The notes under the pieces are model-generated. The model ran no database searches. It worked only from the letters and a program-made list of their open reading frames with translations, and was not told where the DNA came from. A stretch of 28,401 nt of DNA from Candidatus Onthoplasma sp. (lineage in GTDB: Bacteria > Bacillota > Clostridia > Christensenellales > UBA1242): assembly GCA_045120995.1 (NCBI GenBank), contig JBGVFL010000063.1:1-28401 (forward strand), written 5' to 3'. Position numbers and translations under genes: made by a program. Shown here piece by piece: positions 12,947-26,616 of the stretch (its first letter is position 1; each line of letters opens with the position of its first letter).

Positions 12947-13024
12947 TTATACACACGAAAAATGTACTTTTCCACAGGATTTCCACAAGTTATCCACAGA
13001 GTTATCCACAGGCTGTGGATAACT
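12947..13024. promoter_or_regulatory. DnaA-box cluster (6 boxes) outside oriC
   Basis: TTATACACA 12947, TTTTCCACA 12968, ATTTCCACA 12979, TTATCCACA 12990, TTATCCACA 13002, TGTGGATAA 13014. Confidence 0.85.
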
Positions 13025-13106
13025 TTTAGGGCAACGAGAATGTATTTTTATTAAATTCGTGCATTTTTTATATTATATTTTTATCAAATATGATATAATA
13101 ATAATT

Positions 13107-19560: not shown

Positions 19561-21423
19561 ATGGAAAATTTTATAGAACATTACGATGCGATAGTTATTG
19601 GAAGCGGACACGCAGGAAGTGAAGCGTGCCTTGCTCTTTCACGTCTTGGAAAGAGAACTTTGTTAACCACATTAAATTTAGATAGCATTGCATTTTTAGC
19701 GTGTAATCCATCAATTGGAGGAACTGCAAAAGGGCAACTTGCAAGTGAAATTGATGCTCTTGGTGGCGAAATGGGGGTTAATGCAGATAAGTCACTTTTA
19801 CAACTTAGAATGCTTAACTCTGGAAAGGGTCCAGCAGTTCAATCTCTTAGAGCACAAGTCGATAAAGTAACCTATCACACAGAGATGAAACACACAATTG
19901 AACGCCAAGAAAATCTTGATGTTTTACAATGTGAAGTTGCTGAAATTTTAGTTGAAAATAATAAGGTTGTTGGCATTAAAACAGGTATGGGAGAAGTGTT
20001 CTCATGTGATGCAATTGTTGTTGCAACAGGTGTCTATTTGAATGCAAAAATCATCATTGGAGATTACACAAAAAACACAGGACCAAACGGGTTTGAACCA
20101 AGTAATTTATTAACAAAATCTTTAATGGATTTAGGAATAGAAATTCGTCGTTTTAAAACAGGAACTCCTGCAAGAGTAGACGGAAAATCTATTGATTACT
20201 CTAGGTTTGAGATTCAGCCAGGAGACGATATTCAAACAAGCTTTTCATCGCTAAATAAAAAGGTGAAAAATAAACTCCCTTGCTATCTTGGTTACACCTC
20301 AACTGAAATGCACGAATGCATTAGAAACAACATTGATAAAGCGCCTTTATACTCAGGAAAAATTAACGGAATTGGTCCAAGATATTGCCCTAGTATTGAA
20401 GATAAAATTATGCGCTTCGCAGATAAGGAACGTCATCAACTTTTCTTAGAACCAGAAAGTGAAAACAGTGATGAAGTTTATGTTCAAGGAATTTCAAGCA
20501 GTATGCCAAGCGAAATTCAAAGAAAAATGTATAAGCTAATTCCTGGCTTTGAAAATATCAAAATAATGCGATTTGCTTATGCTATAGAATATGACTGTAT
20601 CAACGCAACAGAACTTAAAAACAACCTTGAAAGCAAGCATATAAACGGCCTTTTCTTTGCTGGCCAAATCAATGGAACTAGCGGTTATGAAGAAGCTGCA
20701 GCGCAAGGAATTATGGCAGGAATTAATGCTCAAAAATATATTGATAACGAGCCTGCTTTTGTGTTAGGCAGAGACCAAGCATACATTGGTGTTTTAATCG
20801 ATGATTTAACTACAAAAGACATTGTTGAACCTTATAGAATGATGACAAGTAGAGCAGAATATCGCCTTATTTTAAGACAAGATAATTGTGATTTGCGTCT
20901 TACAGAAATTGGAAGAAAAATAGGTCTTGTTGATGATAAACGTTATAAGATTTTTAATAAAAAATTAAAACAAATTGAAAGCGTTTATAATCAATTAAAC
21001 ACAATGTGTAATCCTTCAAAATTAACAACACTTTTCACTGAGAAAAACGAAAGTTTGCCTCACGGAGGATTAACCTTAAAAGATTGTATTAAACGAAATC
21101 GTATTACTATTTTCGATGTGAAATCTCACTTTAATTTATTTGATAATATTCCAAATAACATCTTGGAATACGTGAATACTGAAATTAAATATGAAGGTTA
21201 CATAAAGAAAGAACTTGAACAAATTGAAAAACAAAAAAAGACAGATAATATAGCTTTGCCAGACATTGACTATTCGGAAATTAGCGGTCTTCGCCTTGAA
21301 GCAAGGCAAAAACTTAATAAATTTAAACCCGCAACAATCGGCTCTGCAAAACGTATTGATGGAGTTAGTCCAAGCGATATTAATGTTTTGTTAGTATTCT
21401 TAAAAATGAAAGGCTTAATTTAA
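19561..21423 (+). CDS. mnmG: tRNA uridine-5-carboxymethylaminomethyl modification enzyme MnmG (GidA)
   Basis: FAD motif VIGSGHAG, CNPSIGG, NSGKGPAV, GPRYCPSIEDK, AGQINGTSGYEEAAAQG. Confidence 0.98.
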   Translation: MENFIEHYDAIVIGSGHAGSEACLALSRLGKRTLLTTLNLDSIAFLACNPSIGGTAKGQLASEIDALGGEMGVNADKSLLQLRMLNSGKGPAVQSLRAQVDKVTYHTEMKHTIERQENLDVLQCEVAEILVENNKVVGIKTGMGEVFSCDAIVVATGVYLNAKIIIGDYTKNTGPNGFEPSNLLTKSLMDLGIEIRRFKTGTPARVDGKSIDYSRFEIQPGDDIQTSFSSLNKKVKNKLPCYLGYTSTEMHECIRNNIDKAPLYSGKINGIGPRYCPSIEDKIMRFADKERHQLFLEPESENSDEVYVQGISSSMPSEIQRKMYKLIPGFENIKIMRFAYAIEYDCINATELKNNLESKHINGLFFAGQINGTSGYEEAAAQGIMAGINAQKYIDNEPAFVLGRDQAYIGVLIDDLTTKDIVEPYRMMTSRAEYRLILRQDNCDLRLTEIGRKIGLVDDKRYKIFNKKLKQIESVYNQLNTMCNPSKLTTLFTEKNESLPHGGLTLKDCIKRNRITIFDVKSHFNLFDNIPNNILEYVNTEIKYEGYIKKELEQIEKQKKTDNIALPDIDYSEISGLRLEARQKLNKFKPATIGSAKRIDGVSPSDINVLLVFLKMKGLI

Positions 21424-21492
21424 TCTCTTCCAATAAGAAAGTGCTATAAAAAATTTGACTTAAAATTTTATTTTTTTTATAATTAAAAGCGT

Positions 21493-22170
21493 ATGTTACT
21501 AACTGATTACCAAAACTTAATTAATAAACATAGAGATGAGTTTGATACTTATTATCAAGAACTTGTTTCCTATAACGATAAAGTAAATTTAACAGCTATA
21601 ACAGAGCGAAATGATGTGTTTACAAAGCATTTTTTAGATAGCATTTTATCAATTGATGCAATACCAGAAAACGCTACCGTTGTTGATGTTGGAACTGGAG
21701 CAGGATTTCCAAGTTTACCTTTAAAAATAGTGCGTCCAGACATTGATATAACAATGGTTGATAGCTTAAATAAACGTGTAGCTTTCTTAAATTTAATATG
21801 TAATAAATTAAAAATTAAATCTAATAATGTTCATGCTCGTGCTGAAGAATTTGCAAAAGAAAATCGTGAAAAATTTGATGTTGCAGTTGCTCGTGCTGTT
21901 GCCAAAATGAACACTCTTTTAGAATATCTTTTACCACTTGTTAAAGTTGGTGGAATTGTTATTGCCTATAAAGGAAGTAACCTTGCTGAAGAGTTTATGG
22001 ATGCCGAAAACGCTCTTGAAGTTTTGGGTGGAAAAGTTTTAAAATCTATTCGTTTCGATCTTCCTAATAGTTATGGTGAAAGAAATATTGTTATTATAGA
22101 AAAAGTTAAAGAAACACCTAAAAAATACCCTAGAGATAAGAATCAACCAAAAACAAATCCTATAAAATAG
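21493..22170 (+). CDS. rsmG: 16S rRNA m7G527 methyltransferase RsmG (GidB)
   Basis: NLTAITE, KHFLDS, DVGTGAGFPS, ARAEE, ARAVA motifs; follows mnmG. Confidence 0.96.
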   Translation: MLLTDYQNLINKHRDEFDTYYQELVSYNDKVNLTAITERNDVFTKHFLDSILSIDAIPENATVVDVGTGAGFPSLPLKIVRPDIDITMVDSLNKRVAFLNLICNKLKIKSNNVHARAEEFAKENREKFDVAVARAVAKMNTLLEYLLPLVKVGGIVIAYKGSNLAEEFMDAENALEVLGGKVLKSIRFDLPNSYGERNIVIIEKVKETPKKYPRDKNQPKTNPIK

Positions 22171-22175
22171 ATGAT

Positions 22176-22207
22176 AAAAAAGATGCTTAATTAGCATCTT
22201 TTTTTTA
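22176..22207. terminator. bidirectional terminator between rsmG and the 210-aa orphan
   Basis: AAAAAAGATGCT-taatt-AGCATCTTTTTT. Confidence 0.85.
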
Positions 22208-22208
22208 T

Positions 22209-22841
22209 TTAAACATTGATATCTTCATATGAGTTTTTAATTAAAGTTCTCATACCTTCAAGTTCACGTTTTTCTTTCTTAATTTCAGCAATTTTCATTT
22301 CTCTTAAATGAGGTATTTCATATATTGCTTGTTCATTATTTTTTTCTTGAATCATTCTTTCGATTAAAGAAATTTGATTCCTTTTTTCTTGTTGTTTTAG
22401 TTCTTTAAATTTATCCCAAATAAAATCTCTTAAATTTGAATAGTCTTTTAACAAGGCAGTCCAATCTCTTATTTCAAATCCACATAAACAATATAGTGTG
22501 TCATTATATTTACCTAAAGAGTAAACTTTAGTTTCTTCGCCATTTTTAACTTCAATCCAAAGTGAATTATCGTTTTTATTTAATAATACTTCCGCTTTGT
22601 TTTTAAAGTAATCTTCTAGAATAGAAACAACTATTTCTTTTCCAACTTCAAACATACGATTTAAAACACTTTTTGTACATTGAAAATAAACATCTCTACT
22701 TAAACCTTTATATGATTCAAATTGTTCAGGGATTATCTTACTATCAATTTCTTGAATTCTTAAAAATATTTTCTTTTCGTCTGCAAACTTAATAAGTTTT
22801 CTTCTCTCTTCAATTAAACTTTTAAACTCTTCGAATTTCAT
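22209..22841 (-). CDS. hypothetical protein, 210 aa, C-terminal coiled coil
   Basis: SD AAGGAG; promoter TTGACA(22895-22890)-16-TGaTATACT(22873-22868); shares the terminator with rsmG. Confidence 0.8.
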   Translation of the reverse strand: MKFEEFKSLIEERRKLIKFADEKKIFLRIQEIDSKIIPEQFESYKGLSRDVYFQCTKSVLNRMFEVGKEIVVSILEDYFKNKAEVLLNKNDNSLWIEVKNGEETKVYSLGKYNDTLYCLCGFEIRDWTALLKDYSNLRDFIWDKFKELKQQEKRNQISLIERMIQEKNNEQAIYEIPHLREMKIAEIKKEKRELEGMRTLIKNSYEDINV

Positions 22842-22914
22842 AAATTCTCCTTTAATAATCTATAAAAAGTATATCACAACATTTATTTTTGTCAATACCT
22901 CTTTCCTTATATAA

Positions 22915-22971
22915 ATGCGCGCACGTACGCATACGTACATACGCGTGTATATACGCGCGCGTGCGCGCGTA
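22915..22971. repeat. 57-bp perfect alternating purine-pyrimidine tract (Z-DNA-forming candidate)
   Basis: ATGCGCGCACGTACGCATACGTACATACGCGTGTATATACGCGCGCGTGCGCGCGTA; every step alternates; 34/57 G+C and 14 CpG steps by hand count. Confidence 0.9.
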
Positions 22972-23131
22972 AGAGAATTTTTTAAATAAAAAATATTCCT
23001 AAAATCAATAAACACTATTAAATTGCTGTAAATTTGTGTTTTTTAGGTTAAAACAATTAATTTTTTTAAGTTTTTTTATAATATTAAATAAAATTGACAA
23101 CTTGTTTTTATTTTTATATAATGACAACATA

Positions 23132-24208
23132 ATGAAAATAAATAACTTAGAACTTAATAACTTTAGAAACTACACTTACTCAAAAACAACTTTTAACGAT
23201 GGCTTAAATTTTATTGTTGGCTCTAATGCTCAAGGTAAAACAAATATGCTTGAAAGTATTTATCTTCTTAGCGTTGGTAAAAGTCCAAAGAATAGTAAAG
23301 ATAAACAGATTATTCGTTTTAATCAAAATAAAGCAAAAGTAGGTGTTAATTTTTCAACAGTTGCTGGAAATAAAACAATAGAAATGTATTTAGATAAATC
23401 AGATAAGAAATCTATAAAAATAAATAATTTAAATATATTAAAACTAACTGAACTTGTAGGAACTTTATCTGTTGTTTATTTCAGCCCAGACGAACTTAAA
23501 CTTATTAAAGAAGTTCCAGAAGATAGAAGAAACTTTTTAGATGTTTCAATAAGCCAATTTGATAAAACTTATTTATATGATTTAATGAAGTATAATCGCA
23601 TTCTAAAAATGAGAAATCAAATATTAAAAAGTTTAGATTCGGTTGAAACAAAACTTGAGCAATTAAAACTTTTTACTCCTCAACTAATTGATACGGCTGA
23701 AAGAATTATTAAAAAAAGATTGAATTTTATTGAAAATCTTAATAAAATCGCAAAAAACATTCATAAAACAATAACAATTGAAGAAAATTTAAATATTTCA
23801 TATTCATATTATTTAAAAGAAAATTTATCTATTAAGGAAGACTTGGAAAAACAATTTAAAGAATCAATTCAAAAAGAGATTGATTTGGGTTACACTTCTA
23901 TTGGTCCCCATAGAGATGATATTATTTTTAAAATTAATGATTTGGATTGTAAGAGCTATGCAAGTCAAGGTCAACAAAGAACTGTTGCTCTTGTTGTGAA
24001 ATTATCTTTAATGGAAGTTATAAAAGAAGAAATTGGTGAATATCCAATTCTACTTCTTGATGATGTATTAAGTGAACTAGACGCTGGAAGGCAGGAACGT
24101 CTTTTAAATATGACAACGAAATACCAAACGTTTATTTCTTGCACTTCTATACCAAAAACTAATTTACCTTATAATAAAAAGGAAATTCAAAACGGAAAAG
24201 TTTTATAA
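23132..24208 (+). CDS. recF: DNA replication/repair protein RecF
   Basis: LNNFRNY, Walker A GSNAQGKTN, GPHRDD, SQGQQR, LLLDDVLSELD. Start at ATG 23132 after TTGACA(23094)-17-TATAAT(23117-23122). Confidence 0.95.
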   Translation: MKINNLELNNFRNYTYSKTTFNDGLNFIVGSNAQGKTNMLESIYLLSVGKSPKNSKDKQIIRFNQNKAKVGVNFSTVAGNKTIEMYLDKSDKKSIKINNLNILKLTELVGTLSVVYFSPDELKLIKEVPEDRRNFLDVSISQFDKTYLYDLMKYNRILKMRNQILKSLDSVETKLEQLKLFTPQLIDTAERIIKKRLNFIENLNKIAKNIHKTITIEENLNISYSYYLKENLSIKEDLEKQFKESIQKEIDLGYTSIGPHRDDIIFKINDLDCKSYASQGQQRTVALVVKLSLMEVIKEEIGEYPILLLDDVLSELDAGRQERLLNMTTKYQTFISCTSIPKTNLPYNKKEIQNGKVL

Positions 24209-24229
24209 GTGCCAGCAGGCACTTTTTTT
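24207..24229 (+). terminator. recF terminator
   Basis: AAGTGCC-agca-GGCACTT-TTTTT. Confidence 0.8.
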
Positions 24230-24238
24230 ATTTTTTGT

Positions 24239-24494
24239 TGTGGATAAACCCTTATGTGTAAAAGTGGATAACTTTAAATTTGTTTTTTTAATTAAAAAAT
24301 TTCTCAACTTAATATTAAAACTTTTTTATTGTTTTTACTATTTTTTCTAAAATAAACCTGCAAAATCACTGCTTTTTAACCAAATTGGTTGAATTTTATT
24401 AAATTTTTAATATTGAAATTTAACTCTAAATAAAATTGTCGATTGAAAAGTTATCCACAATGCTATTGACTTATTCATCAAATTAATGTATAAT
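24239..24494 (+). promoter_or_regulatory. dnaA promoter region with DnaA boxes
   Basis: Boxes TGTGGATAA 24239, TGTGTAAAA 24255, AGTGGATAA 24263 (1 mismatch), TTATCCACA 24451; promoter TTGACT(24466)-17-TATAAT(24489-24494). The box 6 bp upstream of the -35 fits known dnaA autoregulation. Confidence 0.85.
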
Positions 24495-24516
24495 AAAAAT
24501 ATTAAGAGGTGGGATT

Positions 24517-25866
24517 ATGTTTTTACTTGACCAATGGAAAAAAGTTTTAAACAAACTTGAAAATGAAGTTACTGCTGTTACTTTCGATTTATGGATTAAC
24601 ACTTTAACTCCAATTCAATATGCAAACGATGAACTAATTATTTTAGCTCCAAGTGTAACTGCTAAAAACCAAGTTAAACAACCCGGCATTTTTGAAAAGA
24701 TAACAAAATGTGTTCGCCTTGAATTCACTCCTTACACTTTTGTTAGAATTATGGAAAGTCAAGAATATGAAGCAAGCATTCGCAAACAAGAAAAAGAACT
24801 TGATAGCATAATGAAAGAACAACCAAATTTAAAATCAAAATTTAACAAAAAGTATACATTCGAAAATTTCGTTGTTGGTAAATCAAATCAAGTTGTTTGT
24901 GCCGCTATGCAAAGCGTTGCGCAAAACCCTGGTCAAAAATTTAATCCTTTATTCATTTATTCTGGAGTAGGTTTGGGAAAAACCCACTTACTTCACGCTG
25001 TTGGAAATTATTTAAACGAACACAGACCCGAACTTAACGTGTTGTATGTAACTTGTGAAAAGTTTACAAGTGACTATATTCAATCAATCAATAACAGCAA
25101 AGAACGTTCTAATCAAGAATTTAGAAATAAATATCGTAATGTTGATGTTTTAATGGTTGATGATATTCAAGCTATCAAAGGCAAAATTAGCACACAAGAA
25201 GAATTTTTCAATACTTACAATGAACTTTATCAAAACAATAAACAAATCATTATTGCTTCAGACCGACCACCAAAAGAAATGAGTGAGTTGGAAGAAAGAC
25301 TTCGTTCTCGTTTCAGTTCTGGCTTAATTCAAGATATTCAAGAACCAGACTATGAAACAAAGGTTGCAATTATTAAAAAGAAATGTAGTCAAGAGGGTTA
25401 TCTTGTTGATGAAGATGTTGTCGACTTTATTGCACACAAAACAGGAACAAACATTCGTGAAATGGAAGGAATTTTATCTAAGGTTGTTTTCTTTAGTGGA
25501 CTTCTTGGCAAAACTCACACAACAATAGAAGATGCTTATGAAGCTTTAAAAGATTATGGCGAAACAGAAAGAACAGACTTAGATGCAGATAAAATCATAA
25601 ACACTGTGTGTGATTTCTTTAAAGTTACTAGAGAAGAGCTTGTTGGTAAAAAGAAAAACAAAGAAATTGTTGAACCAAGACAATTGTGTATCTACTTAAT
25701 CAATGAAATGTTAAATATTCCTCTAACAGCAATTGGAACATTGCTTGGAGGAAGAGATCATACAACTATTATGCACGCAAGAGATAAAATTGGTAACCAA
25801 GTTAAAGTTAATCCTCACATTAGAACTTTGGTTAACGATATAAAATCTAGACTTTTAAAATATTAA
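24517..25866 (+). CDS. dnaA: chromosomal replication initiator DnaA
   Basis: YTFENFVVGKSN, NPLFIYSGVGLGKTHL, LMVDDIQ, RLRSRFSSGL, domain IV GGRDHTTIMHA; SD GAGGTG. Confidence 0.99.
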   Translation: MFLLDQWKKVLNKLENEVTAVTFDLWINTLTPIQYANDELIILAPSVTAKNQVKQPGIFEKITKCVRLEFTPYTFVRIMESQEYEASIRKQEKELDSIMKEQPNLKSKFNKKYTFENFVVGKSNQVVCAAMQSVAQNPGQKFNPLFIYSGVGLGKTHLLHAVGNYLNEHRPELNVLYVTCEKFTSDYIQSINNSKERSNQEFRNKYRNVDVLMVDDIQAIKGKISTQEEFFNTYNELYQNNKQIIIASDRPPKEMSELEERLRSRFSSGLIQDIQEPDYETKVAIIKKKCSQEGYLVDEDVVDFIAHKTGTNIREMEGILSKVVFFSGLLGKTHTTIEDAYEALKDYGETERTDLDADKIINTVCDFFKVTREELVGKKKNKEIVEPRQLCIYLINEMLNIPLTAIGTLLGGRDHTTIMHARDKIGNQVKVNPHIRTLVNDIKSRLLKY

Positions 25867-25868
25867 AG

Positions 25869-25898
25869 AAAAGGCGAGAATTTAAATCTCGTCTTTTT
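25869..25898 (+). terminator. dnaA terminator
   Basis: AAAAGGCGAGA-7-TCTCGTCTTTT. Confidence 0.75.
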
Positions 25899-25899
25899 C

Positions 25900-26490
25900 T
25901 TCGTTTATTTTGGCAATTTAATAGAGTTTATTCAATGAGAGCATAACAAAAACGCATTTTTATTATGCTGAAAAACGATAAAAATCAAGTTGTCCACACC
26001 AAAATTAGAGATATCAACAACTCAATCCACTTAGTTACACACAAAATATGTGGATAAAAATTGTGCTGATTTTGTCGAATTTTATTACTTCTACCACTAG
26101 ATATTGTTATTTTAAAAGTTGTCCACATTTCCACTTTGCCTAATTAAAAAAACACTACCAAAAAATAAAAAAATATATTAAATAAAAGCGCATATGTGCA
26201 CTATGCGACTTAAATTTTTTAACTAAATCATTTGATAAAAATAATAATATTTATTAAATAATAATTTGATAAATAAAAAGAACTGAAAATGTGCGAAAAA
26301 CTCTATAAAATACTATTTTTAAGCTAATTTGATAAATAAAAAAATCAAATAAAAATTAAAGATAAATTAAGAAATAAATTAATATATATATAATTATATA
26401 TTTAAATATAAACAAAAAAACTGTGGATTTGTGGATAACTTTTAAGAAGTAAAAAACTATAAAATATTTCTTAAAAATCGAGTAAAAGAT
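25900..26490. other. oriC (dnaA-dnaN intergenic origin)
   Basis: 750-bp gap between dnaA and dnaN. DnaA boxes at 25990 (TTGTCCACA), 26049 (TGTGGATAA), 26119 (TTGTCCACA) and the 26422/26430 overlapping pair; Spo0A box TGTCGAA at 26073; very AT-rich 26210-26420. Confidence 0.8.
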
Positions 26491-26519
26491 TTGACATATT
26501 TTAGAGCGTTTGGTAGTAT
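26491..26519 (+). promoter_or_regulatory. sigma-A promoter of dnaN
   Basis: TTGACA-17-TGgTAGTAT. Confidence 0.7.
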
Positions 26520-26616
26520 AGTGTTGTATTATGATTTTGATGTAGGGGACAGAATCAAACAAGCTCATTTGCAGAATATTTGAGCAATTATTAAGAAAAA
26601 TGAGGAGTTAAGAAAA

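Follow-up and report, generated by a model that had tools for sequence, protein, structure and literature searches.

The contig JBGVFL010000063.1 of Candidatus Onthoplasma sp. (assembly GCA_045120995.1), analyzed over a stretch of 28,401 nucleotides (hereafter the window), carries, in this order, the genes mnmE, mnmG, and rsmG (+ strand), a gene encoding a 210-amino acid (aa) orphan protein (− strand), a tract of alternating purines and pyrimidines (R/Y alternation), and then recF, dnaA, and dnaN (+ strand). Candidatus Onthoplasma (Clostridia; Christensenellales; UBA1242) comprises animal-gut bacteria with genomes of approximately 0.8–1.1 Mb (PMC12306168). The subject of this work is the tract, a 57-bp element without strand at positions 22915–22971. 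All of its 56 steps alternate and its G+C content is 59.6%, with 14 CpG steps, while the rest of the intergenic spacer (233 bp) has 16% G+C; this recount agrees with the first-pass annotation of the window, which had described perfect alternation at approximately 60% G+C in AT-rich surroundings. The dinucleotide steps are CG (14), GC (11), TA (8), AC (6), GT (6), AT (5), TG (3), and CA (3). With 14 CG and six CA/TG pyrimidine-purine steps, the tract has the sequence of a flipon (approximately 12 bp or more of uninterrupted alternation, rich in CG or CA/TG). The palindrome ACGCGCGCGT (22953–22962) and a 9-bp inverted repeat (arms 22917–22925 and 22960–22968), both reported earlier, were found at these positions.

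Scanning of the whole assembly (793,665 bp, 65 contigs, 30% G+C), a check proposed together with the first description of the tract, revealed no second long R/Y run, the runner-up having 15 bp. At the genome's own step-alternation frequency (0.458), approximately 4 × 10−14 runs of at least 57 bp are expected by chance. A Logan contig from the probable source sample covers positions 22465–23600 with zero differences, and a bovine-gut contig from a different study and run covers 22724–23028, with the tract length unchanged and a single G>A transition at 22919 that leaves the alternation intact; this support comes from assembled contigs, not raw reads, and rare length variants could escape it. 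At the contig level, an assembly artefact, the exclusion of which had been called for, is ruled out by the independent-sample contig and by homologous tracts in independent metagenome-assembled genomes (MAGs) of related species. The tract is not a generic scattered repeat either, having one copy in its own genome and few copies, at recurrent non-random loci, in relatives. It also differs from a microsatellite or contingency locus in that its steps are mixed and form no pure repeat, and its length is equal in the independent run (contigs only). The tract is real, unique in its own genome, and old. Several MAG contigs of relatives (L020, L021, L022, L025, L036, and L038) break off approximately 50–250 bp from the tract, which suggests that the tract or its repeat-rich surroundings disrupt short-read assembly.

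A cross-genome scan, likewise proposed earlier, revealed homologous tracts at one syntenic locus. R/Y runs of at least 28 bp were identified in 28 of the 64 genomes of the genus, and 25 of the 28 fetched loci represent the same rsmG/DegV-recF locus. Survey of the recF-upstream regions of the remaining genomes added further tracts of 22–28 bp, as well as remnants of 10–17 bp. Altogether, a GC-rich alternating tract of 22–69 bp occupies the same place in about half of the 64 genomes, and most relatives have it between the recF promoter and the terminator that ends the preceding gene, which has the same orientation and is rsmG or, in one clade, a DegV gene. By count, approximately 33 genomes carry the tract, and approximately 20 lack it despite intact synteny. 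The recF tree shows tract-bearing genomes in both of the basal divisions, and because of this distribution the element is placed as ancestral in the genus; parsimony requires 5–7 state changes, read as losses. In sister lineages outside the genus (nine loci, recF 41–47% identical), no tract was found within 2.5 kb of recF.

In the tract-less genomes, either the synteny is broken or AT-only, TATATA-type repeats are present at this position. Where synteny is kept and the GC-rich tract is missing (G041, G067, G008, and G016), the same spacer contains AT-only tandem or near-alternating repeats of this type, with a unit of approximately 27 bp in G041. For G006 and G010 there was no recF match at an e-value of at most 1e-30, despite completeness of 95–99%, and in G006 a copy of the element adjoins an IS91-like gene (Rep_1/Zn_Tnp_IS91). 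Directly after the tract, G019 (L041, approximately 2229–2370) and G079 carry an insert resembling a miniature inverted-repeat transposable element (MITE), with inverted-repeat ends (TGTCATTCTGAGC ... GCTCAGGATGACA); G079 has 2–3 copies of it, and the window none. In a large clade, dnaA has the opposite orientation to recF, so that recF and dnaA converge and dnaA and dnaN diverge around the probable oriC, whereas in the clade of the window recF, dnaA, and dnaN are co-oriented. The tract remains before recF also in the clade with inverted dnaA.

Read toward recF, the element comprises, in order, a pyrimidine-rich flank, (TA)3-4, a core, an extension of CG/TG/CA steps that varies in length and sequence, a terminal CGCGCG, and a purine-rich flank. 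In the window, the left flank CTTTCCTTATATAA (22901–22914, + strand) is identical or nearly identical within the close clade and is replaced by TTTCTTTCAT or CTTATCCT in other clades. Alignment with the four closest species indicates that positions 22915–22945 (no strand) form a fast-evolving, clade-specific extension, in which the alternation is kept and the letters are not. The promoter-proximal core (22946–22973, + strand), i.e., (TA)n followed by CG-rich alternation with TATACG, is predicted to be the first part to flip to Z-DNA; it is the sole match in its own genome (E 5.9e-6) of the sequence model R1, built from 28 relatives. The core consensus is TATATACGCGTACGCG (also given as ATTATATATACGCGTACGCG), with TATACG invariant in 28 species. 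The right flank AGAGAA (22972–22977, + strand) corresponds to AGAGA or AGGA in most relatives and to TTATATAAT in the DegV-type clade. The clade of the window has approximately 40 extra alternating bases between the left flank and the core, hence its tracts of 57–69 bp. In relatives, a canonical terminator with a T-run closes the upstream gene ahead of the element, and the distance from the element to the −35 box of the recF promoter varies from approximately 5 to approximately 250 bp.

The pattern of substitutions within the element was compared with that of its surroundings in two clades. Among the five closest species, 31 variable columns of the tract are transition-only and one contains a transversion, against 65 and 137, respectively, in the flanks, which are barely alignable save for the flank motif and the promoter. 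For a second clade, independent of the first and comprising seven species, the tract counts are 19 transition-only columns against none with a transversion, every tract indel being of even length; the corresponding counts are 7 versus 70 in the left and 20 versus 133 in the right flank. In the pooled tracts of both clades, 50 variable columns are thus transition-only and one has a transversion. The G+C content of the tracts is 50–68%, compared with approximately 30% in the genomes and approximately 16% in the spacers. Because changes within the tract are transitions and even-length indels, while the flanks are transversion-rich, we conclude from these alignments that R/Y alternation and CG richness are constrained and the letters of the extension unconstrained. 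The suggestion of the first-pass annotation that selection acts on the alternation itself is thereby supported. A single break of the alternation is found in G079, G049, G054, and G018, and complete decay to AT in G016; mutation therefore hits the tract, and the intact copies are maintained.

On its left side, the element is preceded by rsmG (21493–22170, + strand; Pfam GidB, 1.9e-49), which by synteny is its ancestral upstream neighbor, a bidirectional terminator hairpin predicted by a terminator scan in the gap between rsmG and the orphan gene (22176–22204, no strand), and the orphan gene itself (22209–22841, − strand). The latter is present in 3 of the 64 genomes, is an accessory insertion between rsmG and the tract lying outside the element, and its product had no match in Pfam, NCBIfam, PHROG, PADLOC, or Atlas. 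The two promoters mentioned in the first-pass annotation were found next to the tract: that of the orphan gene (TTGACA-16-TATACT, 22868–22895, − strand), with its −35 box at 19 bp, and that of recF (TTGACA-17-TATAAT, 12 of 12 positions, 23094–23122, + strand), conserved genus-wide, with its −35 box at 122 bp from the tract. The recF gene (23132–24208, + strand; Pfam SMC_N) is the gene downstream of the element in the genus. Since the −10 box ends only 9 nt before the recF ATG (23132) and no Shine-Dalgarno sequence lies between them (23094–23134), recF is probably leaderless; the promoter is near-identical across the genus. The first-pass annotation stressed the divergent promoters and named the orphan protein as a possible binding partner of the tract. 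Neither idea held: divergent promoters occur only in this genome and one close relative, most relatives having terminator, tract, and recF promoter on one strand, and the divergent geometry is a local accident because the orphan is an accessory insertion. The orphan as partner is excluded by its distribution (3 of 64 genomes, against about half for the tract).

DnaA boxes were found upstream of dnaA (dnaA 24517–25866) at 24239–24459 (no strand), representing the nearest part of a probable bipartite oriC, and in a second cluster (25990–26438) within the dnaA-dnaN spacer (25867–26616, no strand), which combines DnaA boxes with AT-rich DNA, is the probable oriC, and has a longest R/Y run of 14 bp. 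The spacer of the tract (22842–23131) contains no DnaA box with at most one mismatch, the nearest cluster being that at 24239, and the tract is GC-rich; it is not a component of oriC in the sense of a DnaA-box cluster or an unwinding element. Another cluster of 5–6 DnaA boxes (3 perfect) at 12947–13022, before a gene at 13059 and approximately 11.5 kb from dnaA, is denser than the clusters around dnaA. The link to dnaA and oriC proposed in the first-pass annotation stands only as regards proximity, i.e., the tract is near both clusters and relatives have short copies in the dnaA-dnaN spacer. A role specific to dnaA/oriC does not agree with the tract staying before recF where dnaA is inverted, nor with other copies preceding rRNA and ribosomal-protein operons, and insulation or tuning of dnaA by the tract is speculation.

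The sequence-only core model matched solely the tract in its own genome, where there is no copy of the element at rRNA or S10 genes. In the genus, 37 of the 64 genomes have at least one match, and all matches below an e-value of 1e-5 are at the recF locus. Weaker, recurrent matches in relatives were found in the dnaA-dnaN spacer (in the clade with inverted dnaA), upstream of 23S rRNA genes (500–600 bp in at least six genomes; 70–600 bp across copies), and upstream of the S10 ribosomal-protein operon, in G067 abutting a probable −35 box. The polarity of the element is fixed at the recF locus and variable elsewhere. In other genera of the family, elements are present in 9 of the 147 sampled genomes, in one case upstream of S10. 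Two alternating GC-rich runs within coding sequences should also be mentioned. Four relatives (G005, G058, G055, and G017) have a 21-bp run, which is also among the weaker matches of the core model, in a PBP2-type transpeptidase gene, encoding the conserved peptide YDIYVRARNV with the rare codons CGC GCG CGT; the genome of the window (C36, approximately 3900) encodes a near-identical peptide, YDVYVRARNV, with AGG GCT AGA. This could reflect nucleotide-level selection in a coding region or a single inherited oddity. A 32-bp run in G047 (C30, 1500–1531) lies inside an open reading frame with a REP_ORF2-G2P replication-protein domain, which probably belongs to a small replicon, phage or plasmid-like, that was binned into the MAG.

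The ability of the tract to adopt the Z form was estimated with published energies of the B–Z transition (0.7 kcal/mol per CG, 1.3 per CA/TG, and 2.5 per TA dinucleotide, and 5 kcal/mol for each junction; PMC3024258). Competition with strand separation was modeled in the 4-kb region 20900–24900, in a simplified form allowing one run of each kind. With the SIBZ parameters, nucleation is predicted in the promoter-proximal 16–22 bp at a superhelical density (sigma) of approximately −0.035 to −0.043, depending on domain size, i.e., near the values for (CG)8-12. In the competition model, 325 of 326 candidate Z runs fall in the tract, making it the only Z-capable site of this neighborhood. The modeled probability of Z-DNA rises from 0.15 to 0.87 (range 0.7–0.9) between sigma −0.035 and −0.04, and at 0.15 M salt the Z form dominates, its segment lengthening gradually to approximately 52 bp by sigma −0.06. 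This simplified model predicts a B–Z transition in competition with melting at attainable supercoiling, and the predicted transition lies within the physiological range of total supercoiling. The genome encodes topA (topoisomerase I) and two GyrA/ParC homologs; with genes for gyrase, topoisomerase IV, and topoisomerase I present, supercoiling is therefore expected to be actively set.

Considering these data, we tentatively favor, at somewhat less than an even chance, the interpretation of the tract as a supercoil-driven B–Z switch that serves as a local torsional sink before recF-dnaA-oriC. Negative superhelical stress would build up in the spacer through gyrase or through transcription leaving the recF promoter (here also the orphan promoter), and the CG-rich promoter-proximal 16–22 bp would flip to left-handed Z-DNA. 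The Z segment would then extend stepwise into the CA/TG/TA-containing extension, a complete flip taking up as many as approximately 10 helical turns, and would thereby cap the stress for the surrounding 16%-G+C DNA, the promoter, and possibly oriC, reverting to the B form once the stress drops. The copies of the element in relatives, which stand in either orientation before heavily transcribed operons (23S rRNA, S10) and within oriC spacers, fit with such a symmetric, DNA-structural role. We infer that Z-DNA may form inside the cell and that what selection maintains may be buffering or insulation, as opposed to another consequence of alternation.

Several observations weigh against the switch. 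The element was lost 5–7 times and about half of the genomes of the genus do without it, so it is dispensable. The mean unconstrained supercoiling of model bacteria, approximately −0.025 to −0.03, is less negative than the predicted onset, so that operation of the switch would depend on stress that is transient or driven by transcription. With the 0.01 M parameters, melting of the AT-rich flanks overtakes the tract beyond sigma −0.045. The distance to the −35 box, ranging from approximately 5 to approximately 250 bp, makes a precise promoter-coupled mechanism unlikely. Furthermore, sequence conservation is seen in the promoter-distal (TA)3-4 and in the core TATACG(CG)TA, both of which are found again at further loci and outside the genus; this suggests a sequence-reading protein, since pure Z propensity does not require such conservation. 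The Z-alpha domain (PF02295) was not found in the genome (88.7% complete), in a search that also matched none of 14 control genomes.

A protein of that kind is the basis of an alternative that we take seriously but consider rather unlikely, namely that the tract is the operator or landing site of a DNA-binding protein (a growth-operon regulator, or an architectural/nucleoid protein) reading the core (TA)n-CGCG-TA-CGCG with the palindrome TACGCGTA, and perhaps spreading along the extension. The invariance of TATACG in 28 species and the conservation of the flanks (CTTTCCTTATATAA and AGAGA) are in its favor, as is the fact that the recF site is the best match of the sequence-only model in 37 of 64 genomes. 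Moreover, the core with TACGCGTA recurs in relatives, as weaker copies, before 23S rRNA and S10 genes, in dnaA-dnaN spacers, and in other genera, giving a regulon-like pattern. What an operator leaves unexplained is the extension of 10–50 bp, variable in length and sequence yet perfectly alternating and GC-rich; in addition, the genome of the window has a single site, orientation and promoter distance vary, and, with the adjacent orphan ruled out, no candidate protein emerged. It should be stressed that the Z-DNA and operator interpretations can both hold if alternating DNA, or DNA in the Z form, is what a protein recognizes. The preserved alternation could also be a by-product of a local mutational process without selected function, i.e., of dinucleotide slippage in an ancestral (CG)n/(TA)n microsatellite together with its decay, biased toward transitions, as transitions and 2-bp slippage preserve alternation automatically. 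The AT-only alternating or near-alternating remnants in some relatives (among them a run of 20 bp in G016 and tandem repeats of the TATATA type in G041 and G067), the tracts split by one break (G079, G049, G054, and G018), and the several losses agree with it, but neutral DNA at such divergence is randomized, the flanks being unalignable and transversion-rich, and 50–68% G+C in a 30% G+C genome requires GC-ward back-mutation or selection. Since the tracts are impure repeats, tract length is unchanged in an independent population sample, and the absence of any other R/Y run above 15 bp in the genome means that no general process generates such tracts, we regard neutral decay as distinctly improbable.

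Other roles of DNA favored by alternation, which we judge quite unlikely, include a site for type II topoisomerases (gyrase or topoisomerase IV), a barrier to RNA polymerase read-through or supercoil diffusion, and a fragile site seeding insertions and rearrangements. Eukaryotic topoisomerase II favors alternating purine-pyrimidine repeats, Z-DNA blocks E. coli RNA polymerase in vitro, and the element is always positioned right after a terminator and ahead of a strong promoter. The locus is also a hotspot of change, considering the orphan cassette on one side in G000 and G019, the MITE-like insert after the tract in G019 and G079, the IS91-like gene adjoining it in G006, the inverted dnaA of the large clade, and the many MAG contigs ending at the tract. 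Selection, however, would remove rather than maintain a fragile site, and the barrier ideas are variants of the Z-DNA interpretation, not independent of it. A function as RNA (a leader hairpin, a terminator or protector of 3′ ends, or a small RNA) is highly improbable. CG-rich alternation is self-complementary (minimum free energy −22.1 kcal/mol with DNA parameters) and a simple scan called a minus-strand terminator-like site at 22945–22918, yet no gene ends there and no consistent T-run follows the GC-rich end. Being localized between the −35 boxes of two divergent promoters here and downstream of a canonical terminator with a T-run in relatives, the tract lies outside the predicted transcripts. 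The tracts of 21 species folded no better than shuffles in which alternation and composition were retained (mean z −0.55), and the helices vary from species to species, without common architecture; specific conservation is therefore lacking both for a cruciform and for an RNA hairpin. As the 9-bp arms are unconserved too, the cruciform that the first-pass annotation had considered possible was abandoned. Rfam 15 gave no match at the gathering score, and a loose e-value returned only sub-threshold eukaryotic miRNA models. The absence of an Rfam match, hairpins no better than shuffles, a terminator placed before the tract, and no promoter called within it make strand- or transcript-dependent explanations weak.

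Some further candidates were considered and rejected. The tract is not an intrinsic terminator of rsmG, the own terminator of which precedes the tract in relatives and here (22176–22204). A hidden promoter at the TATAAT-like end of (TA)n (many copies read ...TATATAAT... on the strand with the GC part upstream) has no −35 box or TGn motif and no consistent following gene, and the promoter scan called none. Sites of dif/Xer, parS, LexA, and protelomerase type, considered on account of the CCTTATATA flank or TACGCGCGTA-like centers, were dropped, as the tract lacks the second arm or the symmetry and is wrongly positioned for them. CpG methylation was rejected as a driver, as no C5-methyltransferase domain was found in the genome; the genome-wide observed/expected ratio of CpG is 0.67. 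Loss of a topoisomerase creating the need for a sink is ruled out by topA and the two GyrA/ParC homologs.

Among known systems, the closest are Z-forming alternating purine-pyrimidine tracts (flipons), including engineered (CG)n/(CA)n inserts, which Rahmouni and Wells in 1989 (cited in the review PMC13463272), as well as Peck and Wang, reportedly used as in vivo probes of supercoiling in E. coli. Like such Z-forming tracts and probes, the Onthoplasma tract is perfectly alternating, rich in CG and CA/TG, has a predicted onset as that of (CG)8-12, and is situated upstream of a promoter, where transcription generates negative supercoils. Unlike them, it is natural, chromosomal, single-copy, and selectively kept genus-wide at one syntenic locus, and it has a (TA)n-core-extension design with conserved flanks. 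Contingency loci, e.g., the (TA)n dinucleotide repeats between the −35 and −10 boxes of Haemophilus fimbrial promoters, share with it the dinucleotide units and the length differences in 2-bp steps between species. The Onthoplasma tract, however, is an impure repeat outside the −35/−10 gap, at a distance from the promoter of approximately 5 to 250 bp, and has an equal length in an independent sample. The upstream activating regions of E. coli rRNA promoters are FIS sites and UP elements, either AT-rich or defined protein sites. The copies of the element in relatives, found 70–600 bp before 23S rRNA genes and abutting the −35 box of the S10 promoter, recall such regions, whereas the genome of the window has no rRNA or S10 copy, and we know of no FIS-like factor in Onthoplasma. 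Finally, stress-induced duplex destabilization (SIDD) sites and supercoiling-sensitive promoter regions (PMC2211533, PMC3343103) resemble the tract in their intergenic location upstream of promoters and in the proposed action via superhelical stress, in which the tract competes with AT-rich melting. SIDD sites are AT-rich and melt, whereas the tract stands out as GC-rich within DNA of 16% G+C and would take up stress through a change of handedness before its flanks melt.

In the literature searched, we found no description of the element, or of a conserved bacterial tract of this kind near recF, and more generally no natural bacterial tract conserved genus-wide at one locus with selected alternation. 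Direct in vivo evidence of Z-DNA in bacteria is limited, and the support is mostly computational or biochemical (PMC13463272, a 2026 review). Whether Z-DNA has a selected function in bacteria is an old open question, for which the Onthoplasma tract can serve as a natural test case: evolution has already produced variants of between 22 and 69 bp as well as losses, and the genomic surroundings, beside recF-dnaA-oriC, are defined. The evolutionary signature points to a physical property over letters, as conservation extends to the alternation, the G+C richness, and the even-numbered steps in which length changes. It is conceivable, though in our opinion unlikely, that Onthoplasma and, patchily, UBA1242 possess a small family of Z-DNA "torsional capacitors", i.e., (TA)n-CG-rich tracts in terminator-to-promoter spacers before recF-dnaA-dnaN, oriC, 23S rRNA, and S10, which would link the initiation of replication and growth-related transcription to superhelical stress in reduced genomes that have few regulators. 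If so, they would be the first natural, selected family of Z-DNA regulatory elements in bacteria. If the tract is instead the site of a protein, the element would define a regulon joining genes of replication with those of the ribosome in a gut lineage that is uncultured and genome-reduced.

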